A stretch of 64,000 nucleotides of DNA, taken from the NCBI GenBank assembly GCA_039000165.1, contig JAWBTW010000001.1:30525-94524 (forward strand). The letters are read 5' to 3'. This stretch comes from Candidatus Aenigmatarchaeota archaeon. GTDB taxonomy: Archaea > Aenigmatarchaeota > Aenigmatarchaeia > CG10238-14 > SCSR01. Position numbers and translations under genes: made by a program. Below are positions 83 through 27,384 of the stretch, one piece after another (position 1 is the stretch's first letter; every line of letters starts with the position of its first letter). The notes beneath the pieces are model-generated. The model had not been told where the DNA came from. It did no database searches and was given only the letters and a program-made list of their open reading frames with translations.

Positions 83-835
83 ATGGTAGATTTCAAAAAA
101 TTTAATACTTTCATTTTTGATTTAGACGGAACTGTTTGGAACTGGGTAAGTTTGCTTCCAGGAGCAAAAGAAATTATTCAAAAATTAAAAAAAGAAGGAA
201 AGCAAGTTCTTTTTGTCTCAAATAATAGTATGCTTTGCAGAAGAAAGATGGTAGAGAAGTTAAGAAGCTTTGGGATAGAGGTTAAAGATAACGATTTGAT
301 AACTTCAAGTTTTGTTGCCGCGAACTACTTAAAAATTAAAAATGCTAGTGCTTTTCCTATAGGTCAAGGAGTGAAAGAAGAGTTGGAAGAAAATGGTGTA
401 AAAATTGATGAAAATAAACCAGAATATTTGGTTGTCGGTCAAGACTTAAGCTTTAACTGGGAAAAACTGATGAAAGCTTACGAGATAGTAAAAAATGGAG
501 CAAAGATATTGGCTACAGCAAGAGGAAAGGTTTATTTTGAAGGAGAAAAATTGATGCCAGCTACAGGAGTTTGGGTCAGTGCTATAGAATACATAACGGA
601 TAAAAAAGCAAAGCTTATAGGCAAACCTTCTAACGAAATGTTAGAAACTATTCAGCTTTTTGTTTGCTCACCAAGAAAAGAAACTGTTTTGATTGGTGAT
701 GAATGTGATTCAGATATAATGGCAGGAAAGATTCTTGGTTACTATACTGTTTTGGTTAAAACAGGAATAGATAAGGAGGCAAAAAAGGTCAAACCAGACT
801 TGATAATAGATTCTTTAGAAGAAATAAAGATTTAA
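83..835 (+). CDS. HAD-IIA (NagD-like) hydrolase
   Basis: FDLDGT motif I, SNNS, GKPS and IGDxxDSDI motifs. Confidence 0.9.
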   Translation: MVDFKKFNTFIFDLDGTVWNWVSLLPGAKEIIQKLKKEGKQVLFVSNNSMLCRRKMVEKLRSFGIEVKDNDLITSSFVAANYLKIKNASAFPIGQGVKEELEENGVKIDENKPEYLVVGQDLSFNWEKLMKAYEIVKNGAKILATARGKVYFEGEKLMPATGVWVSAIEYITDKKAKLIGKPSNEMLETIQLFVCSPRKETVLIGDECDSDIMAGKILGYYTVLVKTGIDKEAKKVKPDLIIDSLEEIKI

Positions 836-1302
836 TCACTTACTTTTCTTAGATATTTTTTGTACCAGTTCTGAATCGAGGATTTAACGTTTATTTTTCT
901 AACTAAAGCTTTAAGTTCGCTTACCCCTACTCGGAAGTGCCACCTTCCTTTTTTTGTTATAGAATAAACTCTTCTTGGTTTTTCGGCTATAATCATTTGA
1001 GATTCTACAAGACCTCTTTCTTCTAAAGACCAAAGAGTTGGATAAACTGTGCTTGCTCCTGGATTATAACCAAACTTTTCTCTTAATTTTTTCATGATCT
1101 TATAGCCGTGAAGATTTCCGTAATGTTCCAAAAAATAAAGTATTAAAAAATCTATACAGCTTCTAATCCATCTTCTTCTGTATTGCCTAGCAACATCTCC
1201 ATAATTTTCAGTAGGCAAAATTACTGGATATTTTTGAGTTACTTGTGGAAAACTCATGAAAATTAAAGGAAAAGTAAACTTTTTATGTTTTTCTAAAACC
1301 AT
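832..1302 (-). CDS. PadR-family transcriptional regulator
   Basis: HGYxIMK...STVYPTLxxLEERGLV...RRVYSITxKG winged-helix signature. Confidence 0.85.
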   Translation of the reverse strand: MVLEKHKKFTFPLIFMSFPQVTQKYPVILPTENYGDVARQYRRRWIRSCIDFLILYFLEHYGNLHGYKIMKKLREKFGYNPGASTVYPTLWSLEERGLVESQMIIAEKPRRVYSITKKGRWHFRVGVSELKALVRKINVKSSIQNWYKKYLRKVSD

Positions 1303-12872: not shown

Positions 12873-12930
12873 AATGAAATTTTAGAAAAAAAGCTTTTAA
12901 GATTATAGTAACTCAGATAACTAAGTTCAG

Positions 12931-13075
12931 CGCCGAGGCTGGGATTTGAACCCAGAAGGGGCAAAGCCCCACCAGCTTTCTCAACTCACCTCCGACTCAT
13001 CATTAGTCAGAGTCAAGCCATTTTATCATTGAAAGACTCAAGGCTGGCGCGTTAGCCAGGTTCCGCCACCTCGGC
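12931..13075 (-). tRNA. tRNA-Ser(UGA) with 59-nt intron at canonical 37/38 (12978..13036)
   Basis: acceptor GCCGAGG/CCTCGGC + discriminator G, anticodon stem CCAGC/GCTGG, TGA at 13038-13040, long variable arm GGGGC/GCCCC, T-loop TTCAAAT; central splice helix CUUG/UGAG. Confidence 0.95.
12978..13036 (-). ncRNA. Putative C/D-box sRNA encoded by the tRNA-Ser intron
   Basis: C-like ATGATAA (13023-29), 12-nt guide, D' CTGA (13007-10), C' ATGATGA (12997-13003), 12-nt guide, D-like TTGA (12981-84). Confidence 0.7.
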
Positions 13076-15072: not shown

Positions 15073-16032
15073 TTATTTGAAACTTGGATAAGTTCCAGGT
15101 TTTATGAAAACCTTATCAGTTTTTATTGCTATCCCTTTTTTCCTTTCAAACATTTCCTCGCTATTCAAAACAGCTTTTCCTAAGGCAACTAACTCTTCTT
15201 TCAAAGAATAAACAGCTACTATTTCATTTTTCTCTATTCCTTCTTGAATTCTTGTTAAGCCTGAGCAGAAAACTGGCGCTCCATGACAAATTGAATCGAC
15301 AGCAGAATCTTTAACAAAAACTCTTTTTAAGTGCAAAACAGCAAACTCAACAGGAATCAAAATTTCTTTTAAAAATTTTTCATTTCCTTCTTTCCAAAAT
15401 TCATAAGCATCCCTAATCTCCACTAAGGAATGAGCCTGCTCTTCAGTAAAATTTCCTGCTTTTGTCCTTCTTAGCTCAGTTAAATGAGCTCCTATTCCTA
15501 AGCTTAAGCCTAAATCGCTAACAAGCTTTCTTATATAAACTCCAGCTTGGCATCCAACTTTAAACAAAACATCCTTTCCTTCAATTTCCAAAATATCAAA
15601 AAAATAAACTTTTTTTTCTCTTGGTTTTCTTGCAACTGCACTTCTTACAGGCGGGACTTGAACTATTTTCCCAACAAACTTTTTTACTCCTTCTCTTAAA
15701 ATTTCTTCATCAACTTGCTTGTGTAAGTGCATCACTCCTACGTATTCTTTATCTAAACCTAAAAGCACACTCATAGCTTTTGTTGCGTTATCTAAGGCTA
15801 CAGGTAAAACTCCGGTCACGCCAGGATTTCCTCAAAGTTCTAAGGTCCCAGCATGACCAGCCTTTTTTGCTTGAAATATTTCCTTTACCCACTGAGTTAC
15901 TTGATGGCTTGTTGGTCCTGCATGCTTATCAACTATTATCACTGAATTTTTTATTTGCTCTTCTATGCTTCTCTCGCTAGGTCTTTTACCATAACTTTCG
16001 TCAGTTTCTTCCTCTGCTTTAATCAGCCAGAT
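15073..16032 (-). CDS. cbf5: H/ACA pseudouridine synthase Cbf5 in two exons (about 16032..15840 and 15827..15073); 5' end uncertain
   Basis: exon 1 reads ...VDKHAGPTSHQV..WVK...KAGHAGTL; exon 2 reads (D)PGVTGVLP...PPVRSAV...GVYIRKL...ELRRT + PUA; removing 12 nt restores GTLDP. Confidence 0.92.
15828..15839 (-). other. Putative 12-nt bulge-helix-loop mRNA intron in cbf5 (AACTTTGAGGAA)
   Basis: lies inside the catalytic Asp codon G|AT, contains in-frame TGA; central helix CCUU/GAGG, exon helix GGGA/UCCU. Confidence 0.85.
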
Positions 16033-16973
16033 TTTTTCACCCCCTTGACTTTAAGGCCATGCGCAAAAAACTCTTTTATCATAAGAAAAACAAAGACTAT
16101 AGCTGCTATAAGAATTACTAGAAAAACTGGAAACAGTTGAGAGGAAATTTTCCAATTTCCTATGGTAATTTCAGGGAATTGGATATTGCCAATAGACCAA
16201 GTTGGAAATTGGATTTCGCCTTGAGGTTTTTGAGTTTGAGTTGTAATTTTTTTAACTTTTATGCTAAAAGGAAAGGTAAAGTTACACTCTCTACTAGTTA
16301 CGTTTAAAACAAAAGAATAATACTTGTCCTCAGTTAAATTTGGTGTTACAAAATCAAACTTTATGTCAACATAACCAAAAGGAGGAAGGGAAACTAATTC
16401 TAAAGGTTTAGGATAAACTTTAAGCTCAGAAAAAATTGAGTAGTTTAAGCCAAATAAACTGTTACCTAAGTTTGTCATTCTTACGGAATAATTTATTGTT
16501 TGAGAAGAGTTAAACTCCTGAGCTTGTAGACTAAAGTTTACATTGCAAGAAAGGTTCTGTGAAGTTTCATTCCTCACATTTGTTATATTTGTTGTGTTTT
16601 TAATAACAATAAAATCTAGGAAAGGTTCAACAGTTACCGAAGTTCCGTTTATATCTTCAGCAGTGATGTTTGCTAACACATAGTAGCCTTCTTTTTCTTT
16701 TATTGAAGAAAACCATAAACCATTTCTGTTTGTCCCTATTTCAAGGCTAAGATTAATGATTTTATAGCCAACTACCTTAAAATCTAGAGTATGAGTTAAA
16801 AGAGTTGCATAAACTTTTGTTACGTTAGTATCAGAAGTAACATTAGCTGAGAGAATTAAAGAAGTGTTTTCATAAACTATTCCTTTAGGAGTGAGTCTGT
16901 AGGAGTTTATAGAAATGGCTTGAGAAACTGGAATTAAAAGGAAAAAAATTAAGAGCAAGAGTGACTTCTTCAT
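16023..16973 (-). CDS. Secreted membrane-anchored Ig-like surface protein
   Basis: N-terminal signal peptide, many N-x-S/T sequons, C-terminal TM helix. Confidence 0.75.
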   Translation of the reverse strand: MKKSLLLLIFFLLIPVSQAISINSYRLTPKGIVYENTSLILSANVTSDTNVTKVYATLLTHTLDFKVVGYKIINLSLEIGTNRNGLWFSSIKEKEGYYVLANITAEDINGTSVTVEPFLDFIVIKNTTNITNVRNETSQNLSCNVNFSLQAQEFNSSQTINYSVRMTNLGNSLFGLNYSIFSELKVYPKPLELVSLPPFGYVDIKFDFVTPNLTEDKYYSFVLNVTSRECNFTFPFSIKVKKITTQTQKPQGEIQFPTWSIGNIQFPEITIGNWKISSQLFPVFLVILIAAIVFVFLMIKEFFAHGLKVKGVKKSG

Positions 16974-27309: not shown

Positions 27310-27384
27310 TGCGCCAGCCGGGATTTGAACCCGGGTTACGAGCTTGGAAGGCTCGTGTCTTAGACCAGGCTGGACCACTGGCGC
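27310..27384 (-). tRNA. tRNA-Gly(UCC), no intron, CCA not encoded
   Basis: GCGCCAG/CTGGCGC acceptor, CGAGC-CTTCCAA-GCTCG anticodon arm, GGTTCAAATCC. Confidence 0.96.

Follow-up and report, generated by a model that had tools for sequence, protein, structure and literature searches.

In two crenarchaeal orders, the Desulfurococcales and the Sulfolobales, the gene cbf5 is interrupted by an intron of 16-44 bp, mostly with an unconventional version of a motif called bulge-helix-bulge (BHB), for which lineage-specific loss has been described, N. equitans cbf5 being treated as intron-less (Yokobori et al. 2009, PMC2738675). That study places the cuts between the second and third bulge residues, cites experimental evidence for splicing of the crenarchaeal cbf5 intron, ties the splicing of mRNA to a heterotetrameric (alpha-beta)2 endonuclease and quotes a range of 11-175 nt for tRNA introns. 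The subject of this report is an insert of 12 nt at the same position, inside the catalytic aspartate (Asp) codon of the cbf5 gene in a 64,000-nt stretch of a Candidatus Aenigmatarchaeota genome (contig JAWBTW010000001.1, positions 30,525 to 94,524; this whole stretch is called 'the window').

Two further studies frame the comparison. Kaneta et al. 2018 (PMC5829648) use the term ‘bulge-helix-loop’ (BHL) for a relaxed form of the motif and report an ‘L3’ loop in the alpha4 endonucleases of several DPANN lineages, associated with more disrupted tRNA genes, a broad range for DPANN alpha4 enzymes with a C-terminal L3 being only suspected there. In Schwarz et al. 2020 (PMC7714728), the cbf5 intron is the only other reported archaeal BHB intron besides a case in a Haloferax 5' untranslated region (UTR), and a 2023 review describes it as restricted to a small group of archaea. 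A full-text literature search, covering few of the subscription journals, found no report of cbf5 introns in DPANN, Bathyarchaeia or Asgard genomes. Introns in archaeal protein-coding sequence are usually treated as a curiosity, and the initial annotation of the window, made from its letters alone, likewise called them very rare. The literature agrees (PMC7714728, PMC10485636), but in the genome scan reported here the putative cbf5 intron is far more widely distributed.

A 12-nt insert in the catalytic codon of cbf5

With high probability, the 12 bases at 15839-15828 form a minimal intron for the splicing endonuclease, of the type known from cbf5 and in BHL form, which would be cut by EndA and whose flanking exons would be joined by RtcB. 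The gene and its predicted RNA fold (helices and bulge as in both the minimum free energy (MFE) and centroid structures where so marked) comprise the following parts.

15840..16032, minus strand: cbf5 exon 1, 64 codons and the first letter (G) of the Asp codon, with DKCLD, the GPTSH motif and the end ...AGHAGTL-G
15828..15839 (equally 15827-15838), minus strand: 12-nt intron AACTTTGAGGAA, predicted to be excised
15832..15834, minus strand: in-frame TGA inside the intron, giving the unspliced end ...GTLEL
15073..15827, minus strand: cbf5 exon 2, the AT of the Asp codon, 250 more codons and the stop, with the rest of TruB_N, TruB_C_2 and PUA
15846..15860, minus strand: predicted outer helix, 5' strand CUGGUCAUGCUGGGA, with core h = GGGA (MFE and centroid)
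15842..15845, minus strand: predicted central helix H, 5' strand CCUU, exonic (Thr bases 2-3, Leu bases 1-2), followed by AG and the 5' cut
15830..15833, minus strand: predicted central helix H, 3' strand GAGG, intronic
15827..15829, minus strand: predicted 3-nt bulge AA|A with the 3' cut (unpaired in MFE and centroid)
15812..15826, minus strand: predicted outer helix, 3' strand UCCUGGCGUGACCGG (MFE and centroid)

On the minus strand, GGT CAT GCT GGG ACC TTA G ends at 15840 and is followed by AACTTTGAGGAA (15839-15828) and then by AT CCT GGC GTG ACC GGA, the 12 nt splitting the Asp codon between its first and second letters (G|AT); since there is an A on either side of the insert, a shift of both cuts by one base to the right (15838-15827) fits equally well. 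Read in frame, the insert gives GAA CTT TGA, and the unspliced frame runs ...AGHAGTLEL to the TGA at 15834-15832, beyond which it would continue GNPGVTG, whereas excision of the 12 nt recreates GAU (Asp), the motif GTLDPGVTG and a frame of 315 codons. On all of this, namely the sequence and place of the insert, the premature stop and the motif regained by its removal, re-reading of the strand bears out the initial annotation, which had also placed the insert at the crenarchaeal intron site, as Yokobori et al. 2009 (PMC2738675) support. Inspection of the insert region reveals no contiguous GAY codon, so that only removal at the level of RNA can give Asp, which neither read-through nor a ribosomal hop can supply.

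Cbf5 is an RNA pseudouridine synthase, and the window's gene is identified as cbf5 by matches to NCBIfam NF003280 (409 bits) and TIGR00425 (373 bits), both far above their cut-offs, and by the Pfam domains DKCLD, TruB_N, TruB_C_2 and PUA. When it is aligned to solved Cbf5 structures (2apo_A, 2aus_C), the sole gap is one of four residues, located exactly at GTL-D-P.

The 63-nt RNA that surrounds the insert (15806-15868, minus strand) is predicted to fold at -31 kcal/mol (z = -6.19, with none of 200 shuffles as good), in a structure dominated by a 15-bp exon-exon outer helix between the AGHAGT codons and the DPGVTG codons; the fold outlined in the initial annotation is recovered, and is stronger than had been noted. 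Each predicted cut lies 2 nt 3' of one strand of a 4-bp helix (CCUU AG| ... GAGG AA|A), in the register expected. The 3' cut falls in a canonical 3-nt bulge, while the 5' cut comes inside the terminal loop or at its margin, the inner helix being absent; the MFE structure adds two weak pairs (A-U and G-U) inside the CCUU/GAGG helix, leaving a 4-nt loop. In the canonical hBHBh' arrangement both cuts lie in 3-nt bulges, whereas only one does here, and the window's intron, as modelled, is of the relaxed BHL form.

The proposed course of events would thus begin with a cbf5 transcript in which the AGHAGT codons pair with the DPGVTG codons over 15 bp and the CCUU that follows in the exon pairs with GAGG of the intron. 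A single alpha-type EndA would then cut at both sites, in the AA|A bulge on the 3' side and in the loop that follows CCUU (AG|A) on the 5' side, and RtcB would join the exons to give GAU (Asp) and GTLDPGVTG. Synthesis of active Cbf5 would depend on this splicing, because the unspliced mRNA gives only a 66-residue peptide.

The genome encodes the candidate machinery. It has one EndA gene (95 bits, 188 aa; L002:1474-2040, minus strand) with N- and C-terminal domains in the same open reading frame (ORF), whose product aligns end to end with the homotetrameric (alpha4) enzyme of M. jannaschii (1a79, E 2.6e-29); from its sequence, the host enzyme is a single alpha-type EndA, although the missing 8% of the genome could hold a divergent beta subunit. 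With a genome of 0.78 Mb and an EndA closest to that of M. jannaschii, the host is no typical crenarchaeote, as the initial annotation had suspected. The enzyme has six extra Lys-rich residues (KLKRGPKAP region) where the N. equitans alpha protein is gapless and ARMAN-2 also has extra residues, and we infer that these represent the L3 loop. RtcB is present as well (549 bits). ARAGORN, run in its permissive intron mode, makes 44 tRNA calls in the genome, 21 of them with introns, and the AG| ... AA|A setting of the cuts recurs in several of these predicted introns, one even reading ...AA|ATCC.

Within the window, the intron mode also predicts a tRNA-Ser(UGA) interrupted by an intron of 59 nt (12930-13075, minus strand); the default ARAGORN scan and Rfam at its gathering threshold find only a tRNA-Gly, at 27310-27384.

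Same-site inserts in relatives and other archaea

Some of the relatives whose alignment the initial annotation had proposed as a check prove to carry inserts at the same site, in other genera as well as in the window's own. An insert of 12 nt interrupts the Asp codon in each of the six species genomes that make up the genus; its helix part GAGGAA is constant, its loop varies (AACTTT, AGCTTT, AGATTT, and AAAATT in three species) and its TGA stands at the same place. In a survey of the order (118 genomes, of which 107 had a cbf5 match, all listed), the catalytic site was read in 55 genomes, every match with an internal stop being fetched and the site of one genome (G101) lying off its contig end; the 52 matches left unread had no internal stop, so that inserts free of stops would escape there. 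Ten of the 55 genomes carry an insert in the Asp codon: the six genus members and four others, G019 and G100 (15 nt, identical), G041 (12 nt, another family) and G075 (13 nt). The putative intron of G019 and G100, which belong to different genera, differs from the AAAATT form found in the window's genus only by three additional bases. In the class as a whole, 315 of 371 genomes had a cbf5 match, of which the best 150 were listed, and two of the 11 loci fetched outside the order have an insert at the Asp codon, of 15 nt (G125) and 30 nt (G140). The stops within these homologous inserts are TGA, TAA (G041, G125 and G140) or TAG.

Some matches with internal stops turned out to be of other kinds. 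In the cbf5 of G046 (L032, G046:C21, plus strand) a TAG replaces one Glu codon of the conserved AHMxELRRT motif, which is a point change and not an insert and may be an error, a sign of a pseudogene or recoding, and the stops in G054, G116, G053, G061, G063, G122, G123, G124, G149 and G186 lie outside the aligned cbf5 and are not introns. At about 1010-2583, the cbf5 of G019 (L036, G019:C6, plus strand) also contains some 1.5 kb of additional in-frame sequence, with matches to the Pfam families Intein_splicing (73 bits) and LAGLIDADG_3 (56 bits); with its 15-nt insert and these matches, the gene would combine an RNA intron with a protein intein that bears a homing-endonuclease domain.

A wider scan of species genomes combined a Cbf5 context with the shared 3' end RRRG-AA|ATCC. 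Among the matches listed (at least 120 loci), at least 30 are cbf5 genes whose Asp codon holds an insert of 13-35 nt, the other 90 being chance matches, mostly bacterial. The 30 are labelled Bathyarchaeia or Bathyarchaeota (12), Woesearchaeota (5), ‘Thermoproteota’ (4), Nitrososphaerota (2), ‘archaeon’ (2), and Culexmicrobium, Pelearchaeum, Aenigmatarchaeota, Heimdallarchaeota and Methanosarcinales (one each). The scan thereby shows the putative same-site intron to be far more widespread than the literature states, extending to DPANN-type archaea, Bathyarchaeia, other Thermoproteota, Nitrososphaerota and a Heimdallarchaeote. The locus titled ‘uncultured Methanosarcinales archaeon’ (L160, 26-nt insert) is a cbf5 fragment that resembles the Woesearchaeota-labelled genes (…SDYVKKILGIEKAGHSGTL…), and it may be a mis-binned contig.

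For structural comparison, 42 inserts (12-35 nt) were assembled, 12 from the order and class surveys, which had imposed no sequence pattern, and the remaining 30 supplied by the scan. All four pairs of helix H can form in 41 of the 42, compared with 955 of 1722 combinations (55%) when its partners are swapped between sequences and with 0-3 of 42 when its 3' strand is shifted by 1-3 nt; for the unconstrained 12, the figures are 11 of 12 against 50% for swapped partners. In a MAFFT alignment of all 42 (A1), H is 99.4% paired and two of its four pairs show double, compensatory changes (in 12 and 15 sequences), the inner hairpin has two-sided changes at all four of its pairs, and the core outer helix (columns 12-15 with 58-61) is 93.5% paired. 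The covariation score is 0.318, against 0.199 +/- 0.008 for shuffles (0 of 500 reach 0.318) and 0.05-0.14 for slid registers, with the caveat that kinship alone can let related sequences beat shuffles even where there is no structure. The bulge AAA is invariant in the 42 aligned inserts, the search pattern forcing it in 30 of them, and the inner hairpin that the window's insert lacks is present in longer relatives (G125, G140 and most Bathyarchaeia).

The codons of the flanking exons differ in parallel. The exon Gly is GGG in 33 of 42 genes with an insert and in 3 of 50 without; the Thr is ACY in 42 of 42 and 29 of 50; and the Asp is GAT in all 12 genes of the unconstrained set, compared with 31 of 50 insert-less genes. 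This choice of codons is an independent sign of constraint from the predicted fold.

As for the complementarity of the AGHAGT and DPGVTG codons in the window (15812-15826 with 15846-15860), the extended 15-bp helix is only 72% paired across the 42-sequence alignment, and for that reason it is mostly lineage-specific.

Alternative explanations and the surroundings of the gene

That the insert is an error of assembly or sequencing might be suspected of a metagenome-assembled genome in 25 contigs, but Logan contigs from three separate hot-spring metagenome studies (runs X4, X5 and X8) bridge 15828-15839 with no gap or joint, and assemblies of five further species carry the insert; an artefact is scarcely credible. 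Two of these contigs (X4 record 8 and X5 record 17) are identical to the window, and the third (X8 record 21, 36.9 kb) has T>C at 15838, which is an A>G variant of the loop also present in a sister species (G001). The insert is thus found in independent DNA, as the initial annotation had asked to have confirmed. An in-frame stop in a catalytic motif would also be expected of a pseudogene, or of a copy that is decaying and no longer needed, and it is true that small, symbiont-like genomes lose genes and that Gar1 was not detected in this one; the model that misses Gar1 here, however, also misses that of Sulfolobus, used as a control, and Nop10 is present. The genome (783 kb, 91.6% complete) has a single cbf5 and thus lacks the intact second copy that, beside a decaying one, would have spoken for the initial annotation's own refuting case. 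The six genus genes, once the insert is removed, have ratios of nonsynonymous to synonymous substitution rates (dN/dS) of 0.07-0.17 at synonymous divergences (dS) up to 1.0, and none of them has any further stop or frameshift besides the TGA of the insert. With the gene single, its insert kept in 6/6 species, its dN/dS low and Nop10 present, and with an insert whose structure covaries, it is very unlikely that this cbf5 is a pseudogene.

Readings in which the insert is left in the mRNA fare no better. The gene might be split, with an N-terminal peptide of 66 residues and a C-terminal protein of 248 residues, begun at the GTG at 15819, that would assemble into an inactive scaffold devoid of the catalytic Asp; split genes are known from Nanoarchaeum, and an ORF with a GTG start does open 9 nt past the insert. 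Such a protein would nevertheless have lost its Asp while all other residues of the catalytic site stayed conserved, the covariation of the 4-bp exon-insert helix and the codon bias of the exons would be left unexplained, and in G075 a middle exon in the third frame would stay untranslated, which together make a split gene highly improbable. G075 bears on this point through a 20-nt insert at GPT|SH, about 25 codons upstream of the 13 nt that interrupt its Asp codon: the conserved exon that separates the two inserts (SHQITAWLKNIFQVKKIGHAGTL) is in a third frame, and the protein is restored only by cuts at the positions of the helix rule, with 20 nt and 13 nt removed. Translation through the insert, by reading or recoding of the TGA or by a ribosomal hop over the 12 nt, could appeal to a length that is a multiple of three throughout the genus and to a TGA that holds its place in 6/6 species. 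The product of read-through, GTL-ELxGN-P, would nonetheless be devoid of Asp, the upstream gene itself ends in TGA, and a hop cannot build GAU from a G and an AU that lie 12 nt apart. Recoding of TGA does not account for the inserts, because others carry TAA or TAG, and translation in general cannot, because the stops vary and the lengths in G075 (13 and 20 nt) are not multiples of three; this explanation must be rated extremely unlikely.

The interpretation of the 12 nt as an intron has its own difficulties. The predicted 5' site lies outside any 3-nt bulge, and the MFE structure even pairs both bases before the cut. The insert is, as the initial annotation had remarked, a very short version, 12 nt against 16-44 bp in the published study (PMC2738675). 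G100 has a C.A mismatch in H, the sole exception among the 42; 30 of the 42 come from a scan that admits only purines in H's 3' strand and holds GAAATCC constant, which inflates the pairing; and the unconstrained set consists of 12 genomes from 7 genera, six of them in one genus. When the helix rule of cbf5 is applied to the host's predicted tRNA introns, with optimised shifts and the loose borders given by ARAGORN, it holds for 10 of 21, compared with 19% of random sites, a weak benchmark that gives a hint at most. Finally, the run listing contains no RNA-type sequencing run with the cbf5 locus, and a run labelled metatranscriptomic (X10) has contigs on 15583-15732 and 15898-16059 and leaves 15733-15897, including the junction, uncovered. 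These points weigh against an intron, except that the gap in X10 is in itself neutral and speaks neither way on splicing.

At the 5' end of the gene, two further features were recognized from the sequence and from aligned relatives.

16037..16044, minus strand: Shine-Dalgarno-like GGGGGTGA upstream of cbf5
16030..16032, minus strand: putative ATC start codon of cbf5

No ATG, GTG or TTG stands upstream of the conserved N-terminus of Cbf5 in the window. All six genus species and G075 have ATC at the start position, 4-6 nt after a strong Shine-Dalgarno-like site (GGGGGTGA or GGAGGTGA); relatives have TTG or ATG at the aligned position, and in-frame stops lie 1-5 codons upstream of the ATC in G075, G002 and G004. 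The window's cbf5 accordingly appears, from these alignments, to start with ATC. The start overlaps the end of the upstream gene by 10 nt, the stop of that gene being the TGA at 16023-16025. By eye, the flanks of cbf5 consist of a signal-peptide or membrane protein upstream and two small ORFs downstream, and no endonuclease-like ORF was seen beside cbf5 in an inspection that included no family search of the flanking ORFs.

Distribution, a second site, and known systems

Two relatives also have an insert at GPT|SH, of 20 nt in G075 (L040, about 1139-1158, minus strand) and 21 nt in G104 (L037, about 422-442, plus strand). This insert would form a canonical hBHBh' structure, with the two bulges AC|A and AA|A and the inner hairpin GGAG(C)/(G)CUCC, and its central helix is CCCU/GGGG in G075 and UCCC/GGGA in G104, which is a compensatory change; the predicted folds score z = -3.0 in G104 and z = -0.1 in G075. 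A general pattern for the site matched five times in the 371 genomes of the class, three of the matches (in G034, G086 and G344) being on contigs without cbf5, so that by this pattern the candidate intron occurs in only two of the 371 (G075 and G104). A second, canonical cbf5 intron site, as read from these two genes, is new here.

A quick IQ-TREE analysis of the exon-2 protein (64 rows; support by the Shimodaira-Hasegawa-like approximate likelihood ratio test, SH-aLRT) places the insert-bearing genes within their own genera, beside insert-less sisters: G075 in g11 (98/95), G104 in g20 (96), G125 in g50 (100), G140 in g60 (99) and G100 in g20 (92, not starred), with the window's genus as a clade (99). 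Such nesting would require either many losses or many gains, and a patchy distribution of the predicted intron within genera is likewise new here.

Nucleotide identity was also compared on the two sides of a position 30 nt beyond the insert in the Asp codon, a breakpoint chosen after inspection of the data. The gene of G075 (L040) is 0.65-0.70 identical to those of its congeners G035, G076 and G015 (L010, L056 and L011) on the 5' side and 0.77-0.85 on the 3' side (Fisher p = 1.4e-9, 2.1e-5 and 0.035, respectively), while pairs of insert-less congeners give 0.86/0.88, 0.73/0.75 and 0.73/0.77 (5'/3'), none of them significant. The contrast is weaker in G140 (0.70/0.80, p = 0.002; control 0.85/0.80), not significant in G100 and G104, and opposite in direction in G125. 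The first 250 nt or so of the G075 gene, about a quarter of its length and including both putative introns, look imported, which is a further new observation.

A broader account of these patterns is possible, but we hold it to be rather doubtful. The Asp-codon intron would be pan-archaeal (DPANN, TACK and Asgard) and would have spread laterally, with its flanking exon, by homologous recombination and without a homing endonuclease; the 12-nt BHL in the window would be a whittled-down minimum, still cut by an alpha4 endonuclease with the DPANN loop, and Cbf5 synthesis would read out the capacity for splicing. Lateral spread, if true, would explain both the patchiness within genera and the foreign 5' segment of G075, and the weak ATC start would possibly help to make Cbf5 synthesis such a read-out.

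The interest of the locus lies in how small the putative intron is and how relaxed its motif in a genome with an alpha-type endonuclease, in its distribution, much wider than published, in the second site and in the signs of lateral movement. The 12-nt form offers a natural minimal substrate with which to define the recognition range of an alpha-type endonuclease with the DPANN loop, and gain, loss or transfer of endonuclease-type introns becomes testable through the patchiness, the second site and the mosaic 5' segment. There is a practical consequence as well, in that gene callers split or truncate cbf5 in insert-bearing genomes.

Comparison with the described systems yields both likenesses and differences. 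With archaeal tRNA introns of the BHB and BHL types (PMC5829648) the window's intron would share the 4-bp helix, cuts 2 nt 3' of its strands and a 3-nt bulge at the 3' site, and its 12 nt fall within the 11-175 nt quoted for tRNA introns (PMC2738675); unlike them, it lies inside an ORF and its helices are built from codons. For tRNA introns, the relaxed form is said to need (alpha-beta)2 or epsilon2 enzymes (PMC5829648), whereas the EndA of the window's host is alpha-type. With the BHB intron in the 5' UTR of Haloferax volcanii HVO_1309 (PMC7714728) it would have in common a location in mRNA, a splicing endonuclease and a host outside the Crenarchaeota, but the HVO_1309 intron is in an untranslated region of an unrelated gene and has support in vitro, while that in the window interrupts a codon. 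The closest counterpart is the crenarchaeal cbf5 intron (PMC2738675). Its hosts differ from that of the window, a hot-spring archaeon of 0.78 Mb with one alpha-type EndA in place of the heterotetrameric enzyme; the window's form is shorter and has no inner helix at all, and its splicing is deduced here by comparison of sequences, where that of the crenarchaeal intron is experimental. The two nevertheless agree in gene, codon position, phase and predicted cut register, and both are relaxed BHB structures, too short to encode a protein and patchy in their distribution.

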